From Candidatus Spyradenecus sp. (GTDB lineage: Bacteria; Verrucomicrobiota; Verrucomicrobiia; Opitutales; UBA953), in NCBI GenBank assembly GCA_045535075.1, contig JAZSKX010000018.1, positions 308,146 to 372,145 on the forward strand: a stretch of DNA of 64,000 bases, written 5' to 3'. How positions within the stretch are numbered: position 1 is the first letter of the stretch; every line of letters begins with the position of its first letter. This document shows, piece after piece, positions 1 through 64,000 of this stretch. Below the pieces are notes generated by a model. That model was not told the origin of the DNA, ran no database searches, and worked only from the letters and a program-made list of their open reading frames with translations. The translations under genes were made by a program, and so were the position numbers.

Positions 1-1860
1 AACACGTTTATTCATTTGTAATTTTTGCGAATACGAAAGCGATCGCGCATTTGTTTCAAGCTTACCCGTGAAGCTTGCAGCCGTTCCCGTCACATTTTCC
101 TTTTGAACCTGAACAAGCGCGTCAAAGGGAAGTTCAATTTTTTCCGAAAACTCAGCCGTACGGGAACAGGAATCCCTAAACGCGTAGCGCCGTTCGTCAA
201 TTTTTGTATTTATTTTTTCATAACGCCGCCCCTGAGCGAAAACATTTTTAAAGACGATCGGCTCATAAATCAAAATACCTTCCGCGCTTGCCGCATAATT
301 CGGGATTTTAAATTTCGCTTTGAGTTTCAACGGCATTTCGAGATAGCTCCGCCAATCGTTCCCAAGTTCGAGACTTTCGATTTCAACATTCGGAGCAATC
401 GCATAAATCTCCCGCTCGATTTTCTGAACCCAGTCTTCGACATAGCCTTCGCAGTAGGCGCGACGGATCCTTGCATCTGTCTGTCCTTCCGCCTCAAGCA
501 CATATTCCGCGTGAAGCGTACCGTCCGCATCCAGTTTCCCCGTAACATTCACGCGCAAGTAATGATTTTCCGCGGGAGCGACAGGCGTTTTACACAAATC
601 CGAGCCTTCGGGAACGCCCGGCAAATAATGCTGTTGAGATTCTGCGGAAGACCAAAGTTCCCGCACAAACGGAACCCAAGTCGGATCAAGCGGCTCCCAC
701 TTGCCGGCGACTTTCACAAGCGCAACACTGTGGTTAAAATGGTCTGCGGGAAGGGATTCGATACGCGATCCCGCCATCGTCATTGCCGGGCAAGCCTCAA
801 AACCTGCCATTCGCAACATTGAAATCAGCAACGCCGCCTTGTCTTTGCAAACGCCGCAACGATCCGTAAAATTCATATCTGTAGGGTGAAGCGTATAGCC
901 TTCCCCTTTCCCCATCGAAATCCCCGAATAACGCATGTTGTCGGCGACCCAATGAGTCAGACGCGCAATTTTTTCCCGATCGGTTTTCGCTCCCGCGATA
1001 ATCTCATCAACCTTGCGTTGCGCATTCGGAGTCGGCAAAAAACTTCCGAAGTCCTCGTTAACACGATGAAACCAAAGAGACTTCTCCCGCCACGAACGCG
1101 TTGTTGTCAGCTGGAGCTTTGGAGCGACATCAAATAAATCCGCCATGTTGTCTTCTTTCTGAAACGGAAGTATATCCTTCGAAACAAAACGATATTCGGT
1201 TTTCCCGTCATCAAGAAAATTTACTTCCGGAACAACGCTTCCCTGGTAAAACTTGTACTGAAGGGGCTTGCGAATCGCCACGGAATAAACTTTCTCGCAT
1301 ACGGGAGCATCTACACTCCAGAACGGAACGATATCATAAAACTCGCCTCGCATCGGAGGGATAAATTTTTCCTCTTCCGCATTTCCGCTACCTGCTCCGG
1401 AGCCCCCCGAAGCACCGTCGAGCAAGGCGTATGTAAATCCCTTTTTATCAATTCCGTATTCGAGAACATCTCCTTTTTCGAGACGTCCGACTTCAAGCAT
1501 AATTTGCCTTGCGCCCCAGTAAATTGCACGTGCCGGAGCCGCATAATCACAAGCATTCGCGCAATCGAGCTCCCGAACGCTTCCGTCCGGCTTAATAATT
1601 CTCGCAAACGCGAATTCGGCAAACGCCGTAAGCGGATCGTAATCATACTTAACAATACGATTCGCCAATGCGCCTTTCTCGTTGTTGATTTTTATTTTTT
1701 TGAAAAGGCGAAAAATTCCGCTCCCGTTGTCGGCAACATCGACATGGATTTTGTCGCTAAGCACGATGTAATCCGCCTTATTCGCAAGCTCATCAAATTC
1801 CGTTCCCGCAAAAGCGGAGATTCCAAACAGTCCGACACTCCAAAGCAATTTCCGAATCAT
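1..1860 (-). CDS. Secreted DUF3857/transglutaminase-like domain protein (3' end beyond window edge)
   Basis: Absent from the ORF track because it has no stop in the window. Manual translation of parts from ATG 1860 gives a signal peptide (MIRKLLWSVGLFGISAFAG), then DYAAPARAIYWGARQIMLE and the transglutaminase core GVCKDKAALLISMLR...PADHFNHSVA in the same frame. The frame is still open at position 1. Confidence 0.8.
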   Translation of the reverse strand, partial: MIRKLLWSVGLFGISAFAGTEFDELANKADYIVLSDKIHVDVADNGSGIFRLFKKIKINNEKGALANRIVKYDYDPLTAFAEFAFARIIKPDGSVRELDCANACDYAAPARAIYWGARQIMLEVGRLEKGDVLEYGIDKKGFTYALLDGASGGSGAGSGNAEEEKFIPPMRGEFYDIVPFWSVDAPVCEKVYSVAIRKPLQYKFYQGSVVPEVNFLDDGKTEYRFVSKDILPFQKEDNMADLFDVAPKLQLTTTRSWREKSLWFHRVNEDFGSFLPTPNAQRKVDEIIAGAKTDREKIARLTHWVADNMRYSGISMGKGEGYTLHPTDMNFTDRCGVCKDKAALLISMLRMAGFEACPAMTMAGSRIESLPADHFNHSVALVKVAGKWEPLDPTWVPFVRELWSSAESQQHYLPGVPEGSDLCKTPVAPAENHYLRVNVTGKLDADGTLHAEYVLEAEGQTDARIRRAYCEGYVEDWVQKIEREIYAIAPNVEIESLELGNDWRSYLEMPLKLKAKFKIPNYAASAEGILIYEPIVFKNVFAQGRRYEKINTKIDERRYAFRDSCSRTAEFSEKIELPFDALVQVQKENVTGTAASFTGKLETNARSLSYSQKLQMNKRV

Positions 1861-1980
1861 GCGTTGATTCTAAAAAACTCCGGAGACGTCGTGCGATTTA
1901 ATTTTGAAAAGAAAATTCTTCCCCTTCTCTTCTCTCCGGCTACATTTGGCCCCTAAAATTAAGGAACAACAAAAAACACG

Positions 1981-2007
1981 AAGGCCGCTCCCGACGGGAA
2001 CGGCCTT
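1981..2007 (-). terminator. Intrinsic terminator after rplQ, built from the CGGGAACG motif and a variant
   Basis: Hairpin AAGGCCGCTCCCG-A-CGGGAACGGCCTT, followed on the minus strand by a T-rich run. Confidence 0.7.
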
Positions 2008-2033
2008 TGTCGTCTAGATTTAGCGAATAATAC

Positions 2034-13916: not shown

Positions 13917-14267
13917 TTAAAAAGTAATGGTTTTGAGTTTGACCGAATCTCCGGTCAAAATCGTTTGTTTCGTATTAAGTTGTGTAATCAAAGCAACCGA
14001 ATTTTCGGCGTTTGCTTCGGCAATGATAAGCTCGGCAACGGATTCGCCGTCGCGTTCGACGACGCAAAGAGCTCCAGTGCAGAAATTCTTTTCCATTCCC
14101 GAATTGAGAAGCACTAAATCGGCGCTCGTTCCCGCAACTACTTTCTGAACCGAAGCCAGTCCCTCCGAAGAAATTTCGTAAGACAGAACCTTGGCAAAAA
14201 GCGTTCCCGCAAGCCCGATAAACATCAGGCTTGCGATAACTAAAGCAGTTGCAAAACGTGATTTCAC
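13917..14267 (-). CDS. Hypothetical exported protein inserted in the S10 operon
   Basis: 116-aa ORF with a GTG start that fills the rpsS-rplV gap (3 nt after the rpsS stop, 11 nt before rplV). N-terminal signal-peptide-like segment, then a beta-rich body with a CxxxxC pair. Confidence 0.8.
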   Translation of the reverse strand: MKSRFATALVIASLMFIGLAGTLFAKVLSYEISSEGLASVQKVVAGTSADLVLLNSGMEKNFCTGALCVVERDGESVAELIIAEANAENSVALITQLNTKQTILTGDSVKLKTITF

Positions 14268-14270
14268 GAA

Positions 14271-14546
14271 TTAGACAGCTTTCTTCGTAGGAGCCGTATG
14301 AGCCTTGAACGTGCGCGTCGGCGCAAATTCACCGAGCTTGTGGCCAACCATGTTTTCCGTCACATAAACGGGAACAAAAACTTTCCCGTTGTGAACGTTG
14401 AGGTTGAGTCCGACAAAGTCCGGCGTCACCGTGGAGCGACGCGACCAGGTTTTAATCGGCTTGTGATCTCCGGCTTTCTGTGCCGCTTGAACCTTCTCCA
14501 TGAGAGATGCTTCGACATAAAAGCCTTTTTTGATTGAACGTGCCAT
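14271..14546 (-). CDS. rpsS: 30S ribosomal protein S19
   Basis: [21 protein letters not shown]. Confidence 0.99.
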
Positions 14547-14552
14547 TGTCTA

Positions 14553-15410
14553 TTAGCCCTTCTTAACTTTGCGTCCGTTGCGACGAACAATAATATGAAC
14601 GTTCGTGGACTTGGATTTAATGCGCGTCGGGAACCCTTTCGCGAGTTGTCCCCACGGAGAAGAGAGGTGCTGGCGGCCACCGCCACCCTTGGACTTACCC
14701 TGACCCCCGCCGTTCGGGTGGTCAACCGGATTCATCACCATACCGCGAACACGCGGACGGCGTCCAAGCCAGCGATTGCGCCCTGCTTTGCCGAGCGTGC
14801 GGTTATAATGTTCGCCATTGCCGACATAACCGATGGTTGCACGGCAATCCGCGTTCAGATAACGCTGTTCTCCGGAAGGCATTTTGACGATAGCAAGATC
14901 GCCTTCGATACCGAGCAACTGAGCGGCATTACCGGCGGAACGCGCAATACGCGCCTTTTGACCGGGTTCCATCTGAATCGCATGAATAAAGGTCGCGGGA
15001 GCGATATAGCGCAGCTTGACCGTGCATCCCGGATTGAATTCTTCAACCGGATTCATCGTCGAAACAACGGTATCACCGACTTTCAAACCTTCAGGAGCAA
15101 GAATGTAAGCTTTTTCCCCATCCGTGTATTGGATGAGAGCCAAGTTTGCCGAGCGGTTAGGATCGTACTCGAGAGCGAGAACGGTCGCCGGAATTTCAAC
15201 TTTCGCACGACGGAAGTCCACCAAGCGATAGAGACGCTTGTGCCCTCCTCCGCGACGACGCGAAGTAATGCGACCGTTATTGTTACGACCGCCGGTGCGA
15301 TGCTTGGATTCAACCAAGTCTTTTTCCGGACGCTTTTTCGCGAGATCCTGCTTATTGCGAACAAGGAAACGCTGCGAAGGCGTAAGCGGACGATTAGATT
15401 TGAGTGCCAT
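14553..15410 (-). CDS. rplB: 50S ribosomal protein L2
   Basis: [19 protein letters not shown]. Confidence 0.99.
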
Positions 15411-15436
15411 ATTATATGTTCCTCTATCTTAAAACG

Positions 15437-15724
15437 TTAAATGAGTTCAATCTTGTCACCCTTTTTGAGCGTGACGATTGCTTTTTTAACATCCGGAGCC
15501 TTGATGACTTCCCCGCGCTTCGTGCGGGATTGTTTCACCTTGCCCTTGGTGTTGACAACATGAACGCGTTCGACGGTAACCTTAAAGGTCGCTTCAACCG
15601 CCTTGGCGATTTCCGGTTTCTCCGCATTCGGATAAACTTCAAAAACGTATTTGTTGGCTTCCGCGAGGGTAGCCGTCTTTTCGGAGACGAGCGGACGTTT
15701 GAGGACGCTGTATGCAGATTTCAT
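15437..15724 (-). CDS. rplW: 50S ribosomal protein L23
   Basis: PLVSEK, KYVFEV, KKAIVTLKKG. Confidence 0.98.
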   Translation of the reverse strand: MKSAYSVLKRPLVSEKTATLAEANKYVFEVYPNAEKPEIAKAVEATFKVTVERVHVVNTKGKVKQSRTKRGEVIKAPDVKKAIVTLKKGDKIELI

Positions 15725-15738
15725 AATGAATATTCTCC

Positions 15739-16359
15739 TTATTGAGCGCGTTCGATGATTTTCTGCAAACCTTGTTCGCTGACCAAAACCTGATCAAAAG
15801 CAACAAGATCCAACGCATTGAGCGTTGCGGCATCCGTAACGGAAACACGTTCGATATTGCGGATGGAAAGCACCGTATTGTCGTCCCATGCTTCAGAGAC
15901 GATGAGCATTTTTCCTTTCGGGAAAACCTTCGAGAAGACCGAAGCCATAATTTTCGTCTTCGGTTGAGCAGCTTCAAAGCGTTCAATGACGCTCAATCCG
16001 CCTTCGTTCGCCAAATCAACAAGCGCACGTGCGAATGCAAGCTTTTTCATTTTAGCATTAATCGACTTGGACCAATCGCGCGGACGCGGACCAAATACAA
16101 CACCGCCCTTGTAAAGTTGCGGAGCGCGCTTGTCGCCGTGACGAGCACCGCCCGAACCTTTTTGCGGACCTTGTTTTTTACCGGATCCGGCAACTTCGCC
16201 ATAGTCTTTCGTTTTGGCGCTTCCCTGACGAAGATTCGCCTGATAAGCGACAATCGCCTGTTTCAACGCTGCAACGCCCTTGCCTTCTTCAAGCTGCGGG
16301 AGCGCAAATTCTTTTTCAGCGCAGGAGCTTCCGTCAACTGTGTAAACTTTAAGTTTCAT
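15739..16359 (-). CDS. rplD: 50S ribosomal protein L4
   Basis: RQGSAKTK..GEVAGSGKK..QKGSGGARHG, GGVVFGPRPR. Confidence 0.98.
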   Translation of the reverse strand: MKLKVYTVDGSSCAEKEFALPQLEEGKGVAALKQAIVAYQANLRQGSAKTKDYGEVAGSGKKQGPQKGSGGARHGDKRAPQLYKGGVVFGPRPRDWSKSINAKMKKLAFARALVDLANEGGLSVIERFEAAQPKTKIMASVFSKVFPKGKMLIVSEAWDDNTVLSIRNIERVSVTDAATLNALDLVAFDQVLVSEQGLQKIIERAQ

Positions 16360-16374
16360 CGTTCAGTTCTCTCC

Positions 16375-17010
16375 TTATTTTGCTTTTTTCGCTTCACGAA
16401 CATAGACCAAATCCCCATTCGCTCCGGGAATGCTTCCCTTGATGAGAATGAGATTTTGATCTTCGACAATCTTAACGACCGTAAGATTCTGCGTCGTGCG
16501 ACGAACCTGTCCCATATGTCCCGGCATGTCTTTTCCCTTAAAGACGTGTCCCGGCGTCTGACGCATCCCGATAGAACCCGGGCGACGGTGCATCATGTGA
16601 CCATGGGAAGCCGGCTGTCCGGCTTGGTTGTGGCGCTTAACGTTACCTTGGAAGCCGCGACCTTTGGTCGTTCCGATAACGTCAACAATTTGACCTTCTT
16701 TGAAAGTCGTGACGGTAAGTACGTCTCCGACTTTATATTCGGGAGCTTTGTCGTCAAAGCGGATCTCGCTCAGCACGGAGTGCGTTTCGATTCCGGCTTT
16801 GGCAAAATGCCCTTGAACGGGCTTTGTCAAACGCTCTTTTTTCTGGGCGCCGTAGGCAATTTGTACGGCATTGTATCCGTCAGACTCAGCGGTCTTGACT
16901 TGAACAACAGGGCACGGACCCGCTTGAACCACGGTTACGGGAACGAGATTGTCGTTCCCGTCGTAGATTTGGGTCATCCCAATTTTTTTGCCAATCAGTT
17001 GTAACTTCAT
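16375..17010 (-). CDS. rplC: 50S ribosomal protein L3
   Basis: GKKIGMTQI, DGYNAVQ, KGRGFQG, MPGHMG. Confidence 0.99.
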   Translation of the reverse strand: MKLQLIGKKIGMTQIYDGNDNLVPVTVVQAGPCPVVQVKTAESDGYNAVQIAYGAQKKERLTKPVQGHFAKAGIETHSVLSEIRFDDKAPEYKVGDVLTVTTFKEGQIVDVIGTTKGRGFQGNVKRHNQAGQPASHGHMMHRRPGSIGMRQTPGHVFKGKDMPGHMGQVRRTTQNLTVVKIVEDQNLILIKGSIPGANGDLVYVREAKKAK

Positions 17011-22043: not shown

Positions 22044-23870
22044 ATGAAAGCAATCAGAAACATCGCAATCATCGCGCACGTCGACCACGGGAAAACAACG
22101 CTTGTCGATAAAATCATCCGACAGGCGAAAATGTTTCGCGACAATCAAACGATGCAGGAATGCTTTCTCGACAGCAACGATCTCGAACGGGAACGCGGAA
22201 TTACGATTCTTTCAAAAAATATCTCCATTCAGTATAGGGGCGTAAAAATTAACGTCATTGACACTCCCGGACACAGCGACTTCGGAGGACAAGTCGAACG
22301 CGTGCTCAACCTCACCGACGGTGTTATTTTGCTCGTCGACTCCGCCGAAGGGCCGATGCCGCAAACGCGTTTCGTCCTCGAAAAAGCTCTGCGCCTCGGC
22401 AAAAAAGCAATTGTTGTCGTCAATAAAATCGACAAACCGGACGCACGTCCGACGGAAGTCGTCGATGCCGTTTTCGACCTGTTTTGTGAACTTAATGCGA
22501 ATGAAGATCAGCTCGACTTCCCCCTGCTCTACGCGAGCGGCCGCGACGGTTGGGCGGTGAAAGATTTGGAAAACGACCCGCGCAATTCGATTGTCCCGCT
22601 GCTGGATGCCGTCATCGAACACGTTCCCGCGCCGGCACTCGTCGAAGGTCCGCTCCAAATGCAAATTGCGACCTTGGATTATTCGGACTACGTCGGGCGT
22701 ATCGGCATCGGGCGCGTCTCCCGGGGCGAGATTAAACTCAATTCGCCGGTCGTCGTTCTTGACCGCGACGGGAACGCCCGCAACGCACAAATCAAGCAGC
22801 TTTTCACCTTCGAAGGCTTAGAGCGCCAAGACTGTGAAAGCGTCAAATGCGGCGACATCTGCGGCGTCGTCGGGATCGAAGATATTTATGTTTCGGACAC
22901 GATTGCCGACGCGGAAACTCCGGAAATGCTCCCGCCGATTGCAATCGACGAACCGACAATTTCGATGATCTTCCGCGTGAACGATTCGCCGTTTTTCGGC
23001 AAAGACGGCAAATTCGTCACGGCGCGCCATATCCGCAACCGTTTAATGAAAGAATCACAGAGCGACGTTGCTCTGCGCGTCTGCGAAGCCGGGAACGGCG
23101 GCGAAATGTTCGAAGTCTCCGGCCGCGGCGTTTTGCATCTCGCAATTCTGATTGAAACAATGCGACGGGAAGGCTTCGAGCTTGCAGTCTCGCGCCCTCG
23201 CGTCATTACCAAAATTGTGGACGGCGTTTTGCACGATCCGATGGAGCAGCTGACAATTGACGTTCCCGAGGAATCCGCCGGGAACGTAATCACGCTCGTC
23301 GGACAACGTCGCGGCGAAATGACGCACATGGAGACGCGCGGGAATCGCCAGCTCATTGAATTTACGATTCCCACGCGCGGAATCATCGGCTTGCGCTCGA
23401 AAATTCTCACCGCATCGGCAGGCGAAGCGATTGTTTCGCATCGTTTTGATCATTATGCGCCGTTCAAAGGCGACATTCCCGCGCGCATTAACGGCTCGAT
23501 GGTTTCACTCGGGCAAGGAAAAGCCGTCGCTTACGCCATCGATGCGCTTCAACTGCGCGGCACGTTTTTTATCGATCCGGGAGAAGAAACTTACGAAGGC
23601 ATGGTTGTCGGCGAACATTGCAAAGACAAGGATTTACCGGTGAATTTGCAAAAAGGCAAAGAATTGACGAACATGCGCGCAGCGGGAAGCGACCGGAAAA
23701 TGAAAATTGCTCCCGCGACGAAACTTTCATTGGAACAGGCCTTGGAATACATCGCCGACGACGAGCTCGTCGAGGTCACGCCGCATTTCATCCGGCTTCG
23801 CAAAATTTATCTGACGGAAGAAGGTCGTAAACGAGCAGCCAAAGCGCTCAAAGACGGCGTTCTCGCATAA
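22044..23870 (+). CDS. typA: Translational GTPase TypA/BipA
   Basis: IRNIAIIAHVDHGKTT, DTPGHSDFGG, VSGRGVLHL, LTNMRAAG, DELVEVTP. Confidence 0.98.
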   Translation: MKAIRNIAIIAHVDHGKTTLVDKIIRQAKMFRDNQTMQECFLDSNDLERERGITILSKNISIQYRGVKINVIDTPGHSDFGGQVERVLNLTDGVILLVDSAEGPMPQTRFVLEKALRLGKKAIVVVNKIDKPDARPTEVVDAVFDLFCELNANEDQLDFPLLYASGRDGWAVKDLENDPRNSIVPLLDAVIEHVPAPALVEGPLQMQIATLDYSDYVGRIGIGRVSRGEIKLNSPVVVLDRDGNARNAQIKQLFTFEGLERQDCESVKCGDICGVVGIEDIYVSDTIADAETPEMLPPIAIDEPTISMIFRVNDSPFFGKDGKFVTARHIRNRLMKESQSDVALRVCEAGNGGEMFEVSGRGVLHLAILIETMRREGFELAVSRPRVITKIVDGVLHDPMEQLTIDVPEESAGNVITLVGQRRGEMTHMETRGNRQLIEFTIPTRGIIGLRSKILTASAGEAIVSHRFDHYAPFKGDIPARINGSMVSLGQGKAVAYAIDALQLRGTFFIDPGEETYEGMVVGEHCKDKDLPVNLQKGKELTNMRAAGSDRKMKIAPATKLSLEQALEYIADDELVEVTPHFIRLRKIYLTEEGRKRAAKALKDGVLA

Positions 23871-31421: not shown

Positions 31422-31660
31422 ATCAAAAAATGGCGTCTTACTCAAAAGAGCCTAAATTTGTGCTTTCCGTCATTATACGCGCGTTCCGCAGAAAACTACA
31501 ATGCCAATATTCAATATTCTCGCGGGAACGCATCAAGCCCGGAATTTGCGGACTCCCGCCCGCTCGGGGGCGCGTCGTTTCCCGATTTGTAAATTTCAAT
31601 TTGCGGGAACGGACAAGTTCGGCGATAATCAAGGTTTTAATTTTTCTAAAACTAAAATCT

Positions 31661-33085: not shown

Positions 33086-33115
33086 AAAATTAAGGCTTAT
33101 TAAAGAAGCCTAAAA

Positions 33116-33149
33116 AAGCGTTCCCGTGAAATAAATCACGGGAACGCTT
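33116..33149. terminator. Bidirectional terminator formed by an inverted CGTTCCCG pair
   Basis: AAGCGTTCCCGTGA-6nt-TCACGGGAACGCTT between convergent genes. Confidence 0.85.
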
Positions 33150-33180
33150 CTTCTGTCTTTAACCGCGAATCTTTTTCCGC

Positions 33181-35220
33181 TTATTTCGCAGGACGTCCGT
33201 CAAAGAAGAAAACTTCAAAAGGCTTCAACGTGAAGGAGAGCTCCTTGTCGAGCGGAATCGTCGCGCCGGAAATCCCCTGGAGTTTTCGCTGTCCGCCCTT
33301 AAAGGAATCTTTCAGCGTAATAGAGCCCTGGACATGCGCGGGAACGTCGAGCAATTGACGCAACGTCGCCGTAAGCGTTTTTTCGTCTTTAGAAGAATTG
33401 CGCAAGGCGAGAGTCGCCTTTTTTCCGTTCCAGGAAGCCCAACCGTAGATGTCTCCGCATTTTTTTTCGTTGTCCCACGGATTGCCGCCGACCCAGTGAG
33501 CGTCGTCGAGCACATCGGCGTTCCCGCGGAACCACTTGATGCACTCGGCAAGTTCTTTCCAGAGATCGAGTTTCGTCATGATGTCGTTATCGACATAAAG
33601 CTCCTGCAAGGCGCTCCCGCTGGCGAACGCACAACGCATTTCCTTGAGAATGTCGTCGCGTCCGTCGGCGTTGTTTGCCATGCAATTCGGCGGTCCGTGG
33701 CGGGTTATCATGAGTCCGTGCGTCATGATTGAATTAATCGGGCACAGCGGCGAGCCTTGAACAAAGACTTCGTAAACAAGGCGATCTCGATAGGTAATCC
33801 ATTTATTTCGATTATTCCCGTCTCCGATGCCGCCATGGTCGTTTTCCTGTCGCCAAATGGAGTCTGCAATGTGAAACCAAAACGGCGAAGCCCATGTGCC
33901 GACGGTCGTATTGAGGAAAATATCCGGGCGTTTTTTACGAAGAGCTTTCTCAACTTTGATAATGCCTTCTGCGTCTTCCTCTCCTCCCGGACCTTTCGCG
34001 TGGAATTTCGTGCTGATCCCGTCGAACTTGAAATAGCGCATGTCGTAATCGGCAACCATTTGCGAACAACGCCCGACGAACGCGTCGAAGTATTCCTTGT
34101 TCGAAAGCTCAAAATTGCCGATTTGGTTGTTCGGGTGATTTTTATTCCAATAGCCGAGACGCTGAGTCTTGGACGCGCCGTAGCCGCCGACGGGCCCAAG
34201 CCAAGCACCCATTCCCGCGCCTTGCTTCAGCGCTGCGGTATTGAGTTTTTCAAAACCGTTCGGGAACCCGCTGTGGAAGCCCCAGAGCGAATTAAAATCG
34301 TCCCAGCCGTCGTCCCAAACGAACGCGTCAACACCGATTTTATGTTTTTTGAAAAGGTTTTTGTTCCACTCTTCAATGACATCGAGGCATTGTTTTTCCG
34401 ACATGCGGTTCTTCGGATCCGGGTCGTTGTTGCGGTTGATGTTGAGCTCATACCACGAATTGTAGTGGACAAACGAGCGCCACGGCACAGCGCGTTCCCG
34501 CTCATTGTAAGCGAGGAAGGAGCGGCGCTCCTGCCCGGGAACGAGAGCTCCGATAACGGAGGAAACATCCCAGATTTCGCCCTTTTTCAGCGTGGTTTTA
34601 CGCGACCATTTTCCCGTCATCGTGTCGCCGGAAACTTCGTTAAGCGCCATCGGCGTTTCGAGCGCGGCAAAAACCTTTTCCGTTACGACGGGCGAGCCGC
34701 GCGTGTTCCCGAGGACTTTTGCTCCCGGAAGCTTGATTTCAAGCGGAACAATTGCCTGCATCGGAGTATCGGCCTTCGCCTTAATTTTCAGCTCTTGGCG
34801 GATGTAATGCGAGCCGTCGCGCAAAACCGCGCGCCATCTTACGGAAAGATTGCCTTTGCTGAACGTGCCGACGATTGCCTGCCCGGCAAAACGTTCGGAA
34901 AGTTTGACGGCTTTCGGATTCGCTTTGAGAGCAACTTTCTTAAGCGTGCCCTTCATTTGCGATGCTTTAATGATTTCACCGTCACCGAGAACAATCTTGA
35001 AAAGCTCATCCCCTTCGGCGACCGTTTTCCCGCCGAATTTTACTTCGAAACCCTTTTTTGCATCAAAACGCGCGGCAACAAGCTCGTTAGAAAGACGTGT
35101 CCCCGATGCAAGTGCAACGCCGGGCTGCTTCTCAGACGGGAACGCAACATCCGCATTCAGCGCCGGAAGCGCCAATGCCAATAAAGTCAGTGTAAGGAAG
35201 ATTTTCTTTAGGGATTTCAT
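33181..35220 (-). CDS. Secreted glycoside-hydrolase-like protein (clan GH-D/GH36-like barrel)
   Basis: Signal peptide; YNSW, FVWDDGW and YFKFDG motifs resemble GH27/36 barrels; substrate unknown. Confidence 0.65.
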   Translation of the reverse strand: MKSLKKIFLTLTLLALALPALNADVAFPSEKQPGVALASGTRLSNELVAARFDAKKGFEVKFGGKTVAEGDELFKIVLGDGEIIKASQMKGTLKKVALKANPKAVKLSERFAGQAIVGTFSKGNLSVRWRAVLRDGSHYIRQELKIKAKADTPMQAIVPLEIKLPGAKVLGNTRGSPVVTEKVFAALETPMALNEVSGDTMTGKWSRKTTLKKGEIWDVSSVIGALVPGQERRSFLAYNERERAVPWRSFVHYNSWYELNINRNNDPDPKNRMSEKQCLDVIEEWNKNLFKKHKIGVDAFVWDDGWDDFNSLWGFHSGFPNGFEKLNTAALKQGAGMGAWLGPVGGYGASKTQRLGYWNKNHPNNQIGNFELSNKEYFDAFVGRCSQMVADYDMRYFKFDGISTKFHAKGPGGEEDAEGIIKVEKALRKKRPDIFLNTTVGTWASPFWFHIADSIWRQENDHGGIGDGNNRNKWITYRDRLVYEVFVQGSPLCPINSIMTHGLMITRHGPPNCMANNADGRDDILKEMRCAFASGSALQELYVDNDIMTKLDLWKELAECIKWFRGNADVLDDAHWVGGNPWDNEKKCGDIYGWASWNGKKATLALRNSSKDEKTLTATLRQLLDVPAHVQGSITLKDSFKGGQRKLQGISGATIPLDKELSFTLKPFEVFFFDGRPAK

Positions 35221-35519: not shown

Positions 35520-35583
35520 TATCACACAAATTCGGTAGGATTTATTTCTTGAATGAAAATTTTACAAGCTTATCATTTGGCGA

Positions 35584-36393
35584 ATGAAAAACATAAAATT
35601 TCTCTCTTGCCTTACTTTCGCACTTTCGGGAGTAACTTCCGGCGTTTTTGCGGCTGACGCGACATTAAGCTATACGGATGCCTTCGGGATCGCCCAAAAC
35701 CAATCGGAATCCTTAGGGTATTTCATTTTGGAAGAAAACGCCCGCGACGTCGTTTTCAACACGGGAACGAACTACCTTTTCAGTAAAGACCTATATCTCA
35801 ACGCCGGACGCATTGAAAATCTTGAACTCATCGCGACGGGAAACGAAGACGACGCTCGCGTTTACAATAAGACGACGATCGACGGGAACGTCAAAATTTC
35901 GGGCGCAACCGGTTGCTTCTATTCTTACGGCGGAACGATTGAAAGCGGGGCACACTTCACCCTAAACGGAGGGCGATTTGATTTCGCCAATTCGAGCTTA
36001 CACAAATGGAAAATCGGAGAAGAAACGGGAACGCGCGCATTAATTTCAGGAACGGGAACCGTCACCATTCGTAATACGACATTGAATGGCGAAGCCTTTA
36101 CTTCGTGGCTACAGCTGGATTTCGCGAACTATGATGTTTTAAAAAAGACGAAAACGCTGAGTCTTGTCGACGCCGGAACTATCGTCGGTTCCGGATTAAA
36201 TTTTCGCGATATCTCCGTCTTTGTCGACGGCTGGCAAGTTTTTGACTACACGGCAAGTCTGGACTGGAATTCCGACAGCGTAAATTTCGGCAAAATCTCA
36301 ATCACGCATCCGATTCCGGAGCCGTCTGCTTTCGGCATGCTTGCCGGATTATGCGCCTTAGCGTTTGCGGGAACGCGCCGCCGTCACCAATAA
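35584..36393 (+). CDS. PEP-CTERM (exosortase target) surface protein
   Basis: Signal peptide; C-terminal IPEPSAFGMLAGLCALAFAGTRRR (PEP motif, TM helix, basic tail). Confidence 0.92.
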   Translation: MKNIKFLSCLTFALSGVTSGVFAADATLSYTDAFGIAQNQSESLGYFILEENARDVVFNTGTNYLFSKDLYLNAGRIENLELIATGNEDDARVYNKTTIDGNVKISGATGCFYSYGGTIESGAHFTLNGGRFDFANSSLHKWKIGEETGTRALISGTGTVTIRNTTLNGEAFTSWLQLDFANYDVLKKTKTLSLVDAGTIVGSGLNFRDISVFVDGWQVFDYTASLDWNSDSVNFGKISITHPIPEPSAFGMLAGLCALAFAGTRRRHQ

Positions 36394-36396
36394 AAA

Positions 36397-36439
36397 AAGC
36401 GTTCCCGCTTAAGCCGGCTTTCGCCGCACGGGAACGCTT
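36397..36439. terminator. Bidirectional terminator formed by an inverted CGTTCCCG pair
   Basis: AAGCGTTCCCG...CGGGAACGCTT between the convergent PEP-CTERM gene and argG. Confidence 0.75.
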
Positions 36440-36472
36440 CTCTTTTAGCCTTAATCGTTAAGCTCTCAAAAC

Positions 36473-37705
36473 TTACATCATGTTTTCCGGACCGTTGACC
36501 TTGGCGTTCACCTTGAGGCGAAGCGCGTTCAGGTGGATGAAGCCGGAAGCGTCGTCCTGGTCGTAAGCATTGGTCGGGTCGGCTTCCATCGTCGCGATGT
36601 CCGGATTGTAGAGCGAGCACGGCGACTTGCGACCGGCAACGTAGCAGCAACCCTTGTAGAGCTTGACGCGCACCGTTCCCGTGACGTTTTTCTGCGTTTC
36701 CGTAACAAGTGCCTGCAACGCGAGGCGTTCCGGCGCATACCAAAATCCGTTATAAACGAGTTCCGCATATTTCGGAATGAGGCTGTCGCGCAAGTGCATC
36801 GTATCGCGATCCATCGTGATGGATTCCATCTGGCGATGCGCGAAGAAAAGAATCGCTCCGCCCGGGGTTTCATAAACGCCGCGCGACTTCATGCCGACAA
36901 AACGGTTTTCAACCATGTCAACGCGCCCGATGCCGTGCTTTCCGCCGAGCTTGTTGAGCGTTTGCATCACTTCAAGCGGCGTCATCTTCTTGCCGTCGAT
37001 GGCGACGCAGTTACCTTTTTCAAAATCGAGTTCGATAAATTCCGGTGCGTCGGGAGCGTCTTCCGGAGCGACGGAGAGTTTGAACATCGCCTTGTTTTCC
37101 GGGCAGAACGCGTCGAACCACGGATCTTCCATGATCCCGGCTTCGTAGGAAATGTGGAGCAAGTTGCGGTCCATCGAATACGGCTTTTTCATGCTCGCTT
37201 CGACGGGAAGCCCCTGCGCCACGCAGTAATCGATCATTTCCTTGCGCCCCGGGAACTGCGCGCGGAACGTTTCGTCGCGCCACGGAGCGATGATTTTCAA
37301 ATCCGGAGCGAGCGCGGCAGCGGCGAGCTCAAAGCGCACCTGGTCGTTGCCCTTGCCCGTCGCACCGTGAGCGATAGCGTCGCAACCTTCCGCCTTGGCG
37401 ATTTCGACCATGCGTTTCGCGATAAGCGGACGCGCAATCGACGTGCCGAGGAAGTATTGTCCTTCGTAAATCGCTCCCGCCTGCATCATCGGGAAAATGA
37501 AGTCGCGGGCAAATTCTTCCTGCAAATCTTCAATGTAAATTTTGGAAGCGCCGGTTTTCTTGCTCTTTTCTTCGAGCCCGGAAAGCTCTTCTTCCTGTCC
37601 GACGTTCGCGCAGTAAGCGACCATTTCGGCGTTGTATTTTTCTTTAATCCAGGAAAGGAGCACGGACGTGTCCAATCCGCCGGAATATGCGAGAAGAATC
37701 TTCAT
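36473..37705 (-). CDS. argG: Argininosuccinate synthase
   Basis: [36 protein letters not shown]. Confidence 0.99.
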
Positions 37706-37898
37706 AGCAATGATTGTTTTGTGTGATTAAAAAGTAAGCGGGAATCATGCGCCGCGTTCCCGCGAAAATCAACGCGGAATTTAGCAATAAAGCGTAGAAA
37801 CCGTAAACTGCCGTAAATATTTTTAGCCGCGGGCAGCACGATTTTCTCGGATGTTTTTCAAAAAGCTCCGCGAAAAATAATCCGCTCCGCCCGTGAAA

Positions 37899-38735
37899 CT
37901 ATTTTCCGGCGGAAACGAACCCCTTCAGCCAAGCTTCCGCGAGTTGCGGCCAAACAAGCCCGACGCCGGATCGCATGCCGTAGCCGTGCCCGCCTTTCGA
38001 CAAATAATGCAAATCCACGGGACGGCGATTCGCACGCATCGCCTCCGCCATCACCAACGCGCTTCGGCTACTATAATAATAATCGTCGAGCGTCCCGAAA
38101 ATGAACATCGGCGGCGTGTTCGCCGAAACCTTGAGCTCCGGCGTCAGGCTGTGCCCGGGACCGCCGTCGAGATACGCCGGATAAATCAACATCGCAAAAT
38201 CGGGACGGCAACTGAGCTTGTCGGCAGCGTCCCGCGGCGGATAAAGCGTTTCCTCAAATCGCGTTGCCGCACGTGCAGAAAGGCTCGCTCCCGCAGAAAA
38301 ACCGATGACTCCGACTTTCTCCGGCGCGTATTTTTCCCGCACGACACGAATCGCACGCTGAAGATCCTGCAACGCGCCGTTCGGATTCGCGGGAACGCGA
38401 TATGCCAGCGTAAACGCCGTAAAACCCCGGCGCGCCAGCCACTGCGCGACCTCGGTTCCTTCCTTGTCGTAAGAAAGCACCTGATACGCGCCGCCGGGGC
38501 AAACAATGACGGCAACGCCGTTCGGCTCCTTTTCGGGAAGAGCAACTTCCAAGGTCGGGTTCGAAACCCGCGTCAGGCGAATTACGCCCTTTTCCGTTTT
38601 TGTGTCGGTAACGTGCTTTTCCCCAGGCGTATTTTCTGCGGGAACGCTCGGCTTCCAAATTTCGATGATTTCCGCATGAACAGCGGCAGAAAGGCAAAAC
38701 GCGAGACAAGTAACGGCAACAAGAATTTTTCTCAT
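37899..38735 (-). CDS. Secreted alpha/beta hydrolase (carbohydrate esterase-like)
   Basis: Signal peptide from ATG 38735; CPGGAY oxyanion loop, GFSAG nucleophile and GGHGYG. Confidence 0.88.
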   Translation of the reverse strand: MRKILVAVTCLAFCLSAAVHAEIIEIWKPSVPAENTPGEKHVTDTKTEKGVIRLTRVSNPTLEVALPEKEPNGVAVIVCPGGAYQVLSYDKEGTEVAQWLARRGFTAFTLAYRVPANPNGALQDLQRAIRVVREKYAPEKVGVIGFSAGASLSARAATRFEETLYPPRDAADKLSCRPDFAMLIYPAYLDGGPGHSLTPELKVSANTPPMFIFGTLDDYYYSSRSALVMAEAMRANRRPVDLHYLSKGGHGYGMRSGVGLVWPQLAEAWLKGFVSAGK

Positions 38736-38873
38736 GAGAAGAAAGCCTAGCGTTTTTTTCGCGACAGGCAAAAAAATGTTCCCGCAAGAAAATCCCGCGG
38801 GAACGATTTTTCTGTTTCCAAAGAAACTTTCTTCGGAGAAGCCGACCAAACTTATCAGCTTCTAAGCCACAAA

Positions 38874-46081: not shown

Positions 46082-46177
46082 ATTCTTCGTTGCTTCAAGG
46101 GAAGCGAAAGTCAATAATCTACGCGTTATTTTTAACATATTTTCCCTATCGAAGTTCAAAATTCTATTTTTATAAAA

Positions 46178-47248
46178 ATGGCTACCAAATTATTTATTCC
46201 CGGTCCGACGGAAGTCGCACCCGAAGTGCTCGCCGCGATGTCGCTCCCGATGATGGGGCACCGTTCGAAAGTCGCTTCCGAACTGCAACGCCGCATTTCC
46301 GACAATCTGCGCCGCATCCTGCTCACGAAAAACGAAATCCTGCTCTCGACTTCCTCGGGAACGGGCTTTATGGAAGGCGCCGTGCGCTCCTGCACCGCCA
46401 AGCGCGCCGCGATGTTCTCCGTCGGAGCCTTCGGAAAAAAATGGTATAAAATCGCCAAAATGAACGGCATTCCCTCGGACTTTTTTGAAAGCGAGCCGGG
46501 CGAACCGACCACGCCGGAAATGGTTGACGCCGCCCTTTCCACGGGAAAATACGACACGGTTTGCATCACGCACAACGAAACTTCCACCGGGATTCAAAAC
46601 CCGTTTGAAGAAATCGCCGAAGTGATGAAAAAATACCCGGACGTCGTTTGGTGCGCAGACGCGGTTTCCTCCGCCGCCGGAGCAAAAATCGAAACTGACA
46701 AGCTCGGCGTGGACGTGCTCGTTACCTCGACACAAAAAGCACTCGCGCTCCCGCCCGGCATGGCGATTTGTGCGCTTTCGCAAAAAGCCTACGAACGCAC
46801 GGCGAAAGTTGAAAACCGCGGCTGCTACTTCGATTTGCGCGACATTTACGACGTCATTCAGAAGAAAGATTACCAATACACGAACACGCCCTGCGTTTCA
46901 ATTATGTATGCGATGGATTTACAGCTTCAACGCATCATGCAGGAAGGCGTTGAAAACCGCTTCAAGCGCCACGAGGAAATGGCGGCGTTCGTTCGTGCGT
47001 GGGCGGACGAATATTTCGGCATTTTCTCCAACCGAAAATACTTGTCAAAAACGCTGACCGTCATCAAAAACACGCGCGGCATCAGCGTTGCCGACCTGAA
47101 CAAAGAACTCATCAAACGCGGGATGCAGCTCGGGAACGGCTACGGAGACTTTAAGGAAAAGACGTTCCGCATCGCGCACATGGGCGAGCTTCAGATGTCC
47201 GACATGCGCGCCATTACGGAAAACATCGTCGATATTCTCGGCTTGTAA
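46178..47248 (+). CDS. Class V PLP aminotransferase (alanine-glyoxylate/serine-pyruvate family)
   Basis: FIPGPT, HNETSTG, DAVSS, STQKALALPPG, FRIAHMG. Confidence 0.92.
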   Translation: MATKLFIPGPTEVAPEVLAAMSLPMMGHRSKVASELQRRISDNLRRILLTKNEILLSTSSGTGFMEGAVRSCTAKRAAMFSVGAFGKKWYKIAKMNGIPSDFFESEPGEPTTPEMVDAALSTGKYDTVCITHNETSTGIQNPFEEIAEVMKKYPDVVWCADAVSSAAGAKIETDKLGVDVLVTSTQKALALPPGMAICALSQKAYERTAKVENRGCYFDLRDIYDVIQKKDYQYTNTPCVSIMYAMDLQLQRIMQEGVENRFKRHEEMAAFVRAWADEYFGIFSNRKYLSKTLTVIKNTRGISVADLNKELIKRGMQLGNGYGDFKEKTFRIAHMGELQMSDMRAITENIVDILGL

Positions 47249-47285
47249 ATTCCGGAGCTTCTTCAAGCCCTCAAGTTTTCCGACA

Positions 47286-47323
47286 AAAAAGCGTTCCCGC
47301 GAAAAATTGCGGGAACGCTTTTT
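47286..47323. terminator. Bidirectional terminator formed by an inverted GCGTTCCCGC pair
   Basis: AAAAAGCGTTCCCGC-GAAAAATT-GCGGGAACGCTTTTT between convergent genes. Confidence 0.88.
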
Positions 47324-62128: not shown

Positions 62129-62167
62129 GTTGGTAAAAACAATCATTAACGCCAATCAATACAATCA

Positions 62168-63406
62168 ATGAACAACGAAATCATCAGTGTTTTTGAATAC
62201 ATGGAAAAAGAAAAAGGAATCGGTCGCGAATTGCTGATTCCCGTTATCTGCGACGCCATGAAAAACGCTTCAGAACGAGGCGTAAATGCAGGTCAGAATC
62301 TCAAAATTGAGATCGACCCGAAAACCGGCGATATCCGCGCTTGGGCGCTGATGACGGTTGTTGATTCGGTCTCCGACCCGCTGACAGAAATTCATATCAA
62401 AAAAGCGGAACTCTACACGTCCGTACCGCAGCTCGGCGAAGTAATCGAAAAAGAAATCAATCCGGGCTCGCTCGGTCGTATCGCCGCTCAAATGGTGCAA
62501 CAATCCATCATGCAATGGGTGCGCTCATTCGAGAAAGAACGCCTCTACGACGAATACAAAAATCAGGTCGGGCAAATCGTTTCGGGAACGATTCACCGCC
62601 GGGAACGCGGCGATTTCATTGTCGAACTCGGCAAGGCGGAAGCCACGCTCCCGTCGCGGGAACGCCCGTACAACGAAGACTTCCAAGTCGGCGACCACAT
62701 CACGGCGCTTTTACAACGCATCGACACGACGCCGCGCGGCCCGGAAATTATCCTTTCCCGTTCCGATCCGAATTTCGTCCGTCGTATGCTTGAACGCGAA
62801 GTCACGGAGATTTCCGACGGTTCCGTCCAAATCGTGGCAATCGCCCGCGATGCCGGCAACCGCACCAAAATCGCCGTCGATGCCGACGATCCGAAAATCG
62901 ATCCGGTCGGGGCTTGTGTCGGTTCCCGCGGCGCACGCGTTCGCAATCTCGTTAAAGAACTCAACAACGAGAAAATCGACATTATCCGTTACAGTGCAGA
63001 TCCGGAAACGATGCTTCGCGAAGCCATCAAACCGGCGGTCCCGCGCAATATCGAAATTGATTATGAGCGCCACAGCATCTACTTCGAAGTAACGCCGGAA
63101 GACATGTCGATTGCGCTCGGTCGCCGCGGACAAAACGCAAAACTCACCTCGAAGCTTCTCGGCTGGCGCCTGCAGATCGACAAAGTTTCGCGCCCGACCT
63201 CTAAGATTGACGACAAGCGCGACGCGGCAATCCGCGAATTTACACACGTCGGCATTCCCGCAGACATGGCTTCGCGCTTGGTCGATGTCGGATTCTCGGG
63301 CTTGTCGCTCTTTGATGAAGCCGGAATTGAGGACGACCTGCAGGACGCCGGTTTCTCCGCAGAAGAAGCAAAATTCATCGTTATGACAGTTGCGGCTTCG
63401 CGCTAA
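62168..63406 (+). CDS. nusA: Transcription termination/antitermination factor NusA
   Basis: GRIAAQ, ILSRS, ARDAGNRTKIAV, GACVGSRG, GRRGQNAKL. Confidence 0.98.
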   Translation: MNNEIISVFEYMEKEKGIGRELLIPVICDAMKNASERGVNAGQNLKIEIDPKTGDIRAWALMTVVDSVSDPLTEIHIKKAELYTSVPQLGEVIEKEINPGSLGRIAAQMVQQSIMQWVRSFEKERLYDEYKNQVGQIVSGTIHRRERGDFIVELGKAEATLPSRERPYNEDFQVGDHITALLQRIDTTPRGPEIILSRSDPNFVRRMLEREVTEISDGSVQIVAIARDAGNRTKIAVDADDPKIDPVGACVGSRGARVRNLVKELNNEKIDIIRYSADPETMLREAIKPAVPRNIEIDYERHSIYFEVTPEDMSIALGRRGQNAKLTSKLLGWRLQIDKVSRPTSKIDDKRDAAIREFTHVGIPADMASRLVDVGFSGLSLFDEAGIEDDLQDAGFSAEEAKFIVMTVAASR

Positions 63407-63450
63407 TCCGACTTAAAAAACAAATTTAACCCGATTCCAACACCGGAAAT

Positions 63451-64000
63451 ATGGCAACACGCGTCAGTGAATTATCCAAAATGATCGGCGTTTCGAACAA
63501 AACGCTCGTGCTTTTCTTTGCGGAAAAACACCCGGAGTTTAAAATTACCGATCCGAGCAAACACCACGGGAAAAGCTTCTCGTGGTTCCCGGAAGACGGG
63601 CACACGATGGAAGAAGAAATTCAAGCCGAGCTGGATGCCTTTTTCCGCGAACATCCGGAATTAGTCGAAAAGACAAAATCCAAAAAGTCTCCGGCAAAAA
63701 ATACTTCGGGAAAATCCGTTCCCGCGACGGCGGCAGAAGAGCCCGCGCCTACGGCAGAACCGGCAAAACCCGCTCCTGCACCTGCGCCGGTACCGCCTGT
63801 TCCGCCGCCCGCGCCGAAACCGGCGCCGGTTCCTCCCGTGCCGCCGCGCCCGGCAATGGCTCCCGTGCCGCCGATTCCTGCGCCGCGTGCTTCGGTTCCG
63901 ATGCCGCCGCCCGTCCCGGCTGTTCCGAAAAGCGCTCCCGCGCCGATACCGCCGGTCCCCCCGCCTGCACCGAAGCCTGTTGCTCCGACTCCGAAACCCG
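63451..64000 (+). CDS. infB: Translation initiation factor IF-2, N-terminal part (runs off window)
   Basis: ATG 63451 gives MATRVSELSKMIGVSNKTLV (IF2 N-terminal-like), then a Pro/Ala-rich linker. Position directly after nusA; the GTPase domain is not visible. Confidence 0.8.
   Translation, partial: MATRVSELSKMIGVSNKTLVLFFAEKHPEFKITDPSKHHGKSFSWFPEDGHTMEEEIQAELDAFFREHPELVEKTKSKKSPAKNTSGKSVPATAAEEPAPTAEPAKPAPAPAPVPPVPPPAPKPAPVPPVPPRPAMAPVPPIPAPRASVPMPPPVPAVPKSAPAPIPPVPPPAPKPVAPTPKP

Follow-up and report, generated by a model that had tools for sequence, protein, structure and literature searches.

A dispersed 8-mer in a ruminant-gut Verrucomicrobiota genus as a candidate DNA uptake or recombination tag

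The asymmetric, non-palindromic word CGTTCCCG is dispersed at high density through the genome of Candidatus Spyradenecus sp. We give an even chance to the reading that it is a tag for DNA uptake or recombination, akin to DUS and USS, which would be new for Verrucomicrobiota. The window, by which we mean the whole stretch of 64,000 nucleotides that was analysed, holds 143 exact copies of CGTTCCCG/CGGGAACG, in and between genes (82..63724), with 77 on the plus strand and 66 on the minus strand. In 100 dinucleotide-preserving shuffles of the window, the mean was 5.84 copies (sd 2.23, largest 11). GCGTTCCCGC matched 42 times in the window, compared with 0.59 expected. The original prediction had put the copies at about 140, with a zero-order expectation of 2–3 and near-even, interleaved orientations, and had called certain one-mismatch forms common. 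The counts bear this out: the zero-order expectation was recomputed as about 2.3, and the two named forms, CGCTCCCG and TGTTCCCG, occur 857 and 800 times genome-wide.

Across the genome as surveyed (1,949,087 b in 18 contigs, 52% GC), CGTTCCCG occurs 5159 times (2632 and 2527 by strand), or once per 378 b, compared with expectations of 69 (zero-order) and 183 (first-order). It is the top-ranking 8-mer; the next unrelated one, CGCCGCCG, occurs 1228 times. Genome-wide, exact copies stand to one-mismatch forms as 5159:6437. The informative positions are g-CGTTCCCG-[C/T]-[G/A], which gives the extended form gCGTTCCCG[C/T][G/A], and the flanks carry zero information outside −1 to +3. Thus, the word is not part of a longer repeat, and a dispersed repeat of the REP or MITE type was rejected, as there is no conserved unit longer than the core.

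Codon usage, peptide content, a dispersed repeat or a mobile element might instead give rise to the word as a by-product, and the flanks do show a weak 3-base periodicity, together with a 41:59 lean of the words with respect to gene direction. However, all six reading frames hold CGTTCCCG, with 305–1456 copies per frame, and the density is higher between ORFs (4.03 per kb, 13% of copies) than within them (2.51 per kb, 87% of copies). The 4489 copies in ORFs compare with a mean of 510 after a protein-preserving synonymous shuffle and with 165 after codon permutation, so the enrichment survives the kind of null that the original prediction had named as the one to set it against. Together with flank information that ends after 1–3 bases, the shuffle and the frames refute a by-product, the probability of which we regard as negligible. 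The force behind CGTTCCCG acts on the DNA itself. Among coding places where the peptide permits the word, 4489 of 6588 (68%) are filled; this saturation is extreme, and was counted against the reading as a tag.

With replication strands inferred from GC skew on the contigs, the word splits 46:54 and 56:44 by the sign of the skew, and 55:45 in favour of the putative leading strand once gene strand is allowed for. The original prediction had asked whether orientation follows the replichore; it is the gene strand that is followed, and the replication-strand residue is small. Even spacing was rejected: the gaps are near-exponential (CV 1.10), that is, close to random. CGTTCCCG is scarce in several stretches with atypical GC or with phage or restriction-modification content, and the C5-methylase, prophage-like and RT stretches hold 0–1 copies each. 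The rpoB and ribosomal-protein stretches are free of the word, and the longest gap between words in the window, 2.7 kb at 14202..16938, contains the genes for ribosomal proteins L2, L4 and L3.

Inverted pairs of the form CGTTCCCG-N6-16-CGGGAACG occur 146 times genome-wide as terminator hairpins with an A-run and a T-run, and account for 292 of the 5159 copies (≈6%). Close pairs in the plus-minus order number 142, compared with 33 expected, and those in the minus-plus order number 14. The 113 intergenic pairs almost all follow a gene end (109), only four being located between divergent genes. In the window, a two-way terminator hairpin (33112..33153) has an 18-pair stem on both strands; the inverted pair at 33119-33146 is preceded by an A-run and followed by a T-run. 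The convergent purB gene and a 679-aa ORF flank this hairpin, which marks where two separately introgressed genes meet (see below). A second hairpin with inverted pair, A-run and T-run (47292..47317) comes right after a class-V aminotransferase gene. The inverted pair within the typA ORF (23261..23286) has no T-run and is therefore not a terminator. When the hairpin pattern was scanned beyond this genome, the matches listed (at least 120) were mostly single chance ones from many phyla; among them, one Opitutales MAG contig had two.

The genus consists of uncultured bacteria of the sheep and goat gut. CGTTCCCG is raised in all 18 of its other genomes, 14 of which hold 5161–7777 copies, three about 1370 and one 552, whereas 22 of 22 genomes from other genera are at control level. 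Word-rich genomes (n = 15) and word-poor ones (n = 4; G001, G002, G013 and G014) thus share one tree, and an RpoB tree has word-rich genomes to either side of the genus root. The original prediction had suggested looking for dialects in relatives, but none were seen. A distant congener, G016, carries the identical word with identical flanks, and samples of 58–98 kb from each of the four word-poor genomes gave the same word at lower density in three, nothing obvious in G014, and no alternative word. In DNA less than 85% identical to G016, 509 of 961 words are in the same place and orientation, compared with 14.4% for any 8-mer. Given the 68% saturation, these shared positions are also compatible with independent filling, not only with descent.

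The distribution across genomes bears on an MmeI-family restriction-modification enzyme encoded at C2:15779-18766, for which CGTTCCCG could be the recognition site. The protein is full-length for the family (995 aa) with all five MmeI domains, and its gene itself has eight words. The family presumably reads asymmetric 6–8-mers, many of which have AC at their end, as does the core CGGGAAC; we take this as a lead only. However, homologues, at 35–80% identity, occur in only nine of the 18 other genomes of the genus and were not found in seven word-rich ones (G003, G006, G007, G008, G009, G012 and G016), while there is a homologue in G030, which belongs to another family and has no excess of the word, and in the word-poor G001, with an internal stop. 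Furthermore, restriction sites are usually avoided rather than enriched. On this distribution, the enzyme was rejected as the driver of CGTTCCCG, and we consider this explanation very improbable. A methylated site had been the alternative raised in the original prediction, and this protein was the sole enzyme detected with the potential to recognise a contiguous, asymmetric 7–8-mer.

Comparison with G016, for which 68% of that genome was used, showed that 198,671 of 697,793 aligned bases (≈28%) are 94–100% identical, while the remainder is 64–84% identical. The near-identical pieces (n = 102) have a median length of 1.5 kb, and 74 of the 98 pieces of at least 700 b comprise a single gene. Differences within them (2207 synonymous and 1125 non-synonymous; 2668 transitions and 1071 transversions) form a substitution pattern that looks natural. 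These alignments show heavy single-gene exchange between species of the genus. At ≥94% identity, exchange was seen only with the subclade of G016, G007, G010 and G011. In word-poor relatives, 984 of ≈64,500 aligned bases reached this level; thus, word decay and lack of exchange go together, which is the one indirect link to a preferential uptake of word-bearing DNA.

Several of these pieces fall in the window. The purB allele (31660..33087, plus strand) is 98% identical to those of the clade-B species G016 and G007, whereas neighbours such as uvrA are 71–77% identical to any congener. Next to it, most of the 679-aa ORF, which was not assigned to a family, together with its terminator (33112..35015, minus strand), is 96% identical to G016, where it is found at an unrelated place. 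The argG allele (36368..37785, minus strand) is 98% identical to G016, 97% to G010 and 95% to G007, and the left boundary of this piece is exactly at a word in both genomes. Also included are a PaeX-like esterase gene (37918..38743, minus strand; 96% identical to G016) and the class-V aminotransferase gene (46166..47249, plus strand; 98% identical to G016 and G007). Assembly chimerism was set aside as the source of this mosaic because contamination is low (0.13%), identity is 94–99% rather than 100%, substitutions are mostly synonymous, and the same arrangement is present in contigs of four other studies: a 110-kb contig from one covers window positions 30001-40000 with 163 differences, and contigs from three more bridge the joint at 33087/33112. 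Exchange with the G016 subclade could also reflect a shared habitat without any tag, and pieces of this size could likewise come from small transducing or GTA-like particles.

Piece ends lie within 30 b of a word in 31% of cases, more often than random points (15%) or gene boundaries (16%), and exchanged genes have 3.3 words per kb versus 2.1 in the rest. These values, like the argG boundary, are in line with a signal that acts after entry, either Chi-like or nuclease-attenuating, which would shield linear DNA and promote RecA loading, or an anchor for gene-sized replacement. The gene content is also suggestive: a conserved ORF (about 1100 aa) whose PDDEXK nuclease domain is of the AddAB/RecB type is found in 17 of the 19 genus genomes at E ≤ 0.001 (16 above the family cut-off), and a RecD2 gene adjoins the pilus ATPases. 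However, most piece ends follow start or stop codons, not words, the value of 3.3 per kb is the donor clade’s own density, and the nuclease ORF is also present in word-poor genomes. The near-even split is unlike that of strongly polarised signals such as Chi and KOPS, and the word density is far above that known for any Chi. We therefore consider a post-entry signal unlikely.

The genome encodes a retractile type IV pilus set (PilB, PilT, PilB and PilC; PilM through to the secretin; seven pilin-like genes). Four of the pilin-like genes form a minor-pilin cluster at C1:259100-262397, and the other three are located elsewhere. ComEC (with no match to a Lactamase_B domain), DprA and ComM genes are also present. 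Of the competence genes that the original prediction had pointed to, ComEA was not found in searches of the genome with the PF12836 and TIGR00426 profiles, which matched only proteins read from their sequences as Tex, UvrC, DnaE and integrase. ComEC is found in 31 of 31 family genomes, including genera without CGTTCCCG; therefore, the machinery does not discriminate between word-bearing and wordless genera. The four word-poor genomes retain ComEC, DprA and a small 141-aa pilin with no internal stops, and 12 of 12 tested pilus proteins are open in them (the minor-pilin cluster, PilB/T/B/C, and PilM to PilQ); word-rich and word-poor genomes alike have an intact minor-pilin cluster and 141-aa pilin. 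The idea that word decay stems from gene loss was therefore rejected: no loss of known uptake parts explains it, in a comparison that left out the pilin-like genes C16:98944 and C2:44974. The lineage’s own sequence-specific transformation system that the original prediction envisaged is partly supported: the use of all frames and both orientations, the terminators, the confinement of the word to a single lineage and its scarcity in islands speak in favour, while the failure to find ComEA or dialects and the retention of all tested uptake genes in word-poor genomes hold it back.

The retained genes also suit a different kind of explanation, in which the factor lost from word-poor genomes may lie elsewhere. 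CGTTCCCG could be a genome word resembling HIP1, whose reader serves repair, methylation or the nucleoid rather than DNA uptake and which is kept either by selection on chromosome structure or by a sequence-directed bias of mismatch repair. The density and fold excess are within the HIP1 range given in the part of Xu 2018 available to us (an excess of 15- to 300-fold, with upwards of one copy in each gene), the words are conserved between genomes above background, as is reported for HIP1, and the near-saturation of permissive places suits a mutational or repair drive. However, CGTTCCCG is not a palindrome, and no methylase is conserved alongside it: two C5 methylases lie in word-free stretches, N6_N4 methylase and Vsr were not found in a search of the genome, and the three HsdM proteins all belong to type I systems, which read split sites. 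Nor does this explanation lead one to expect terminator pairs, or the absence of introgression that accompanies loss of the word. We regard it as a real possibility, although well short of likely.

If CGTTCCCG is instead an uptake or recombination tag, we infer that the retractile pilus and secretin would preferentially bring in word-bearing DNA, with the minor-pilin cluster as the first choice of candidate receptor, by analogy with ComP and ComN. ComEC, DprA, ComM and RecA would then replace the homologous gene. Repeated cycles would favour word-creating mutations, a molecular drive by which most permissive places would become filled, and inverted word pairs would be taken over as terminators. 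Newly acquired DNA would lack the word, and the word would decay where the process stops. A further proposition, which we find rather doubtful, is that CGTTCCCG is a genome-wide self-tag whose reader lies outside the known uptake parts, because all of these persist intact where the tag decays. Such a reader would gate gene-by-gene homologous replacement between species, strongly enough for two-thirds filling and for about a quarter of shared genes to come from another clade, and would constitute a new recognition module for bacterial sex, in a phylum from which neither transformation nor uptake sequences are known.

A search of literature listings found no report of sequence-specific DNA uptake in Verrucomicrobia, and work from 2025, in the portion available, treats it as a matter of Neisseriaceae and Pasteurellaceae. 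If the tag reading is true, these uncultured ruminant-gut Opitutales would be a third, independent case, implying that self-tagging of DNA arose repeatedly. They would also provide a new tag-and-receptor pair for study. The genus is a natural experiment, and since its 15 word-rich and four word-poor genomes are on one tree, the reader should be findable by association. The gene-by-gene hybrid genome also shows the extent of between-species exchange that is possible in a gut community, and bears on species limits and on the reading of metagenome bins in such groups.

CGTTCCCG resembles Chi and KOPS in being short, asymmetric and over-represented, and in that it may be linked to recombination. 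Those two are strongly strand-polarised with replication, whereas CGTTCCCG splits 55:45 and is far denser. Cyanobacterial HIP1 and the alternate highly iterated palindromes likewise reach at least one copy per gene, are conserved from one genome to another and have been lost from some lineages, as described in the available parts of PMC4390886 and PMC5861425; those words, however, are palindromes with cognate orphan methylases, while CGTTCCCG is asymmetric and has no conserved methylase.

The USS of Pasteurellaceae, for which the minor pilin ComN/PpdA is the predicted receptor, likewise use all frames and show raised use of the encoded peptides, and there, too, a four-gene minor-pilin operon is present, according to the accessible text of the ComN paper. 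Findlay and Redfield 2009, in the sections available, report that USS are lacking in genes without homologues in relatives and are rarer in well-conserved genes; here, the ribosomal-protein and rpoB stretches are word-free. The same sections give 1471 uptake sequences for the H. influenzae genome, compared with 5159 in 1.95 Mb here, and CGTTCCCG differs further in having no AT-rich extended flanks and in a genome in which ComEA was not found.

The DUS of Neisseriaceae, whose reader is the minor pilin ComP, differ from CGTTCCCG in sequence and phylum (here Verrucomicrobiota, Opitutales). There is only a candidate receptor here, the minor-pilin cluster, and no dialects were seen, the word-poor genomes having the same word at lower density. 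Placement differs as well, with 87% of copies in ORFs, 68% of permissive places filled and ≈6% of copies in hairpin pairs; about half of DUES sit in terminators, according to the part of a preprint that was available. Nevertheless, DUS are also short, non-palindromic words present in thousands of copies (up to nearly 6000 in 2.4 Mb, according to the excerpts available from Frye 2013) and the commonest of their length, and the exact to one-mismatch ratio found here falls in the range given there; the possibility of slow DUS degeneration upon loss of specificity is raised in those excerpts as well. As with CGTTCCCG, DUS occur in both orientations, within genes and, as inverted pairs, in terminators, are common to related species, and go together with exchange between species.

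The word CGTTCCCG, originally proposed as a candidate DNA uptake sequence, was counted 143 times in the window, close to the ≈140 copies first estimated by eye; dinucleotide-preserving shuffles gave a mean of 5.84 and a maximum of 11. The near-even orientation first noted was borne out both in the window (77 copies on the + strand, 66 on the –) and in the whole genome (2632/2527), and the one-mismatch variants, described as common, summed to 6437 genome-wide. The 10-mer GCGTTCCCGC occurred 42 times in the window, compared to 0.59 expected. In the entire assembly (1,949,087 bases in 18 contigs, 52% GC), where the window corresponds to C5:308146-372145, there were 5159 copies of CGTTCCCG, or one per 378 bases, against expectations of 69 (zero-order) and 183 (first-order). 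It was the most abundant of all 8-mers, the next unrelated one having 1228 copies, and its density was level at 2.4–3.2 per kb on every large contig. (The small contigs C18, of 3741 bases, and C3, of 3143 bases, have zero and one word, respectively, and may be rRNA or mobile elements.) Core positions 4, 7 and 8 tolerated the fewest variants. Information in the aligned copies was confined to g-CGTTCCCG-[C/T]-[G/A], showing that this is a word and not part of a longer repeat.

Genes were called by a crude longest-ORF procedure; the resulting 1597 ORFs, with unreliable starts and a few wrong strands, make up 91% of the genome. The word was found in all six frames, with 305 to 1456 copies per frame, and was denser between ORFs (4.03 per kb) than within them (2.51 per kb). 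When synonymous codons were exchanged within each ORF, preserving the proteins and per-ORF codon usage, the 4489 copies in ORFs fell to a mean of 510 (maximum 543 in 10 runs), so that the enrichment persists under a protein- and codon-preserving null; permutation of the codons left 165. Overall, 68% (4489/6588) of the places where the peptide permits the word are filled by it. The force on the word thus acts at the level of the DNA, not of the protein.

There were 27 word-free stretches of at least 2.5 kb, many with atypical GC (40–44% or 55–59%); among them are stretches that carry a C5 methylase, a reverse transcriptase or phage-like genes. Despite the genome average of one word per 378 bases, none occurs in window 14202-16938, which encodes the ribosomal proteins L2, L4 and L3, or around rpoB (C5:244667-249204, on the contig that carries the window). 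On contig C16, positions 183461-221091 contain seven word-free stretches in series, of 3.2–4.8 kb each and with a GC of 43–56%, probably representing a large foreign island.

Relative to gene direction, the word was oriented 41:59; when 20-kb windows were sorted into positive and negative GC skew, the splits were 46:54 and 56:44. Conditioned on gene direction, the bias tracked the gene, leaving ≈55:45 on the putative leading strand. This is nowhere near as polarized as Chi or KOPS.

Close pairs in which the word is followed by its reverse, 15–25 bases apart, numbered 142 compared to 33 expected, while the opposite order was found 14 times. Inverted pairs of the form CGTTCCCG-N6-16-CGGGAACG numbered 146, of which 113 were intergenic. 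Convergent genes flank 45 of these, 64 follow a gene in a tandem arrangement, and only four are located between divergent genes. Nearly all pairs are preceded by an A-run and followed by a T-run. Clear terminator pairs in the window are located at 33112-33153 and 47292-47317. Only 6% of words (292/5159) belong to such pairs. The 45-base hairpin at window 33109-33153, loop included, recurs without any difference on a second long contig (run X4), and in G016, a distant congener from the other main clade of the genus, the same hairpin follows its copy of the neighboring gene. Entire hairpins, and not the word alone, are common to different loci or genomes.

The word was raised in each of the 18 congeners, 14 of them having 5161–7777 copies, G001, G002 and G013 ≈1370 each, and G014 552; the reversed word, used as control, gave 31–102 per strand. 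Outside the genus, but within its family and order, the 22 genomes examined were all at the control level. The dialects that had been envisaged in relatives were not seen: in samples of the four word-poor genomes we found no other word, only the same one at lower density, and the flanks of the word in G016 were those of this genome. In an RpoB tree of 32 rows (G017 and nine genomes from outside the genus were omitted because of a split rpoB, the lack of a locus or a long branch), the genus formed one clade (100/100), with word-rich genomes to either side of the root. The word-poor genomes made up two nested lineages, one being G014 and the other the trio of G001, G002 and G013, which is the sister of this genome with 98% RpoB identity. 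The simplest reading of this tree would be a single gain on the genus stem, followed by two declines, although the word may instead have been regained in this genome. In the uvrA and typA genes, the trio has the word at only 1–2 of the 12–20 word places of this genome, and about half of the alternatives in G001 are one base off the word. Where the DNA was <85% identical to G016, 509 of 961 words were at the same place and orientation, compared to 14.4% for any 8-mer; with 68% saturation, these shared places could be explained either by descent or by parallel filling. From one main clade of the genus to another, gene order is nearly wholly scrambled, and adjacent housekeeping genes are no exception. 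The sister trio retains collinear blocks of 4–9 kb.

Most genes in the parts of the window compared with the genus showed 69–83% identity to every congener, the word-poor trio being the closest. A few showed 94–98% identity to members of the other main clade, namely G016, G007, G010 or G011. When 68% of G016 was compared with the whole of this genome, the identities were bimodal, with a broad mode at 64–84% and a sharp mode at 94–100% comprising 198,671 of 697,793 aligned bases. The sharp mode consisted of 102 pieces (median 1.5 kb, maximum 6.6 kb), found on every large contig and mapping to scattered, non-syntenic places in G016, with flanks that are unrelated in the two genomes. Among pieces of at least 700 bases, 74/98 span one gene. 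Their ends lie a median of 23.5 bases from an ORF boundary, compared to 274 bases for random points; 35 of 94 3′ ends fall within –4 to +3 nt of the stop codon, and 14 more 49–73 nt past it, thus including the terminator. We infer that the sharp ends result from the scrambled gene order, in which donor–recipient homology would end at gene edges and limit the tract. Differences in the near-identical class (2207 synonymous and 1125 non-synonymous; 2668 transitions and 1071 transversions) are as expected from natural divergence. For purB, argG and an aminotransferase, the next closest alleles likewise come from the other clade, indicating that this genome was the recipient. Exchanged DNA carried 3.3 words per kb, compared to 2.1 per kb elsewhere. 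Two introgressed genes flank a 269-residue ORF (window 35584-36393) that has no close match in G016 and weakly matches a PEP-CTERM sorting signal (E = 0.0004; score 20.8 bits, cut-off 20.7).

The window stretch was present in sheep, goat and other gut or feces metagenomes from 10 studies. A 110-kb contig of depth 48 from another study covers window 30001-40000 with 163 differences, and contigs from three further studies cross the joint at 33087/33112; since these independent contigs span it, the mosaic arrangement is real. The genome shows the imprint of short homologous replacements, very frequent, in which single genes came from another species with the same word. Such exchange would run through transformation, although small transducing particles may carry it instead. 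In small samples of the four word-poor genomes (two lineages), 984 of ≈64,500 aligned bases were at least 94% identical to G016. These form one 984-base piece, 96.5% identical, in the G013 sample (loci L011-L015), the sole near-identical piece in ≈300 kb of word-poor DNA. Word decay and the absence of exchange go together, in two lineages, in small samples and with habitat uncontrolled.

The transformation machinery is mostly present. Of the competence genes suggested for a search, ComEC, DprA, ComM (with ChlI, Mg_chelatase and C-terminal domains), pilins and a secretin were found. ComEA was not found with the PF12836 and TIGR00426 profiles, whose matches were read from sequence as Tex, UvrC, DnaE and an integrase. 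ComEC (contig C11:3775-5487; 570 residues) has Competence and DUF4131 domains and no Lactamase_B match; it is short, open frames across the genus being 562–758 residues. The 984-residue secretin adjoins PilM, and a PilB, PilT, PilB, PilC cluster adjoins RecD2. There are seven pilin-like genes, four of them in a minor-pilin cluster. ComEC was present in 31/31 genomes sampled from the family, and is therefore non-discriminating; ComEC, DprA and a small pilin were each present in 19/19 genomes of the genus. The word-poor genomes also keep the minor-pilin cluster, the ATPase cluster and PilM to PilQ, and all 12 pilus proteins lack internal stops in G001, G002, G013 and G014. None of the uptake genes tested was thus lost from the word-poor genomes. 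Their intactness counts against the simplest uptake reading, or is at best neutral.

The main rival is a word like HIP1, the cyanobacterial iterated palindrome, with a reader unrelated to uptake, which we consider rather unlikely. Only one enzyme potentially able to recognize an asymmetric 7–8-mer was found, a full MmeI-family protein (contig C2:15779-18766; 995 residues, with 8 words inside its gene). Homologues were found in only 9/18 congeners, at 35–80% identity, and in none of 7 word-rich genomes; one is present in a genome of another family without word excess. The gene is part of a defence-type island outside the window (C2:15779-23600, locus L043), together with a reverse transcriptase (937 residues, 0 words), a T5orf172 protein and an HTH plus SocA/Panacea protein. 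There are three HsdM genes, and a PDDEXK helicase-nuclease ORF is conserved in most of the genus; no N6_N4 methylase or Vsr was found in this genome. Its two C5 cytosine methylases both lie in word-free stretches that look like recent acquisitions, one apparently phage-derived (contig C8:21104-31779) and the other with 40% GC and adjoining an AAA-type ORF (contig C12:44634-48942).

A full-text literature search for the word returned only primers and unrelated uses, and nothing on topic was found on DNA uptake sequences, natural transformation or competence in Verrucomicrobia. Because of its anatomy, the mostly present machinery and the single-gene exchange, we regard a DNA uptake or recombination tag as the best explanation for CGTTCCCG, and give it an even chance. 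Some reader protein would recognize the word, which would bias uptake, and molecular drive would maintain it. Known systems were compared on the basis of Frye 2013 (PMC3630211; DUS, the Neisseriaceae sequence, whose counts, given in Tables S1/S2, were compared in outline), Findlay and Redfield 2009 (PMC2817400; USS of Pasteurellaceae), Helsem 2025 (PMC12616744; ComN), a preprint (10.1101/2025.10.24.684340; DUES), and Elhai 2015 (PMC4390886) and Xu 2018 (PMC5861425) for HIP1. The anatomy of CGTTCCCG matches DUS and USS point for point, except for its extreme saturation and far more numerous intragenic copies.
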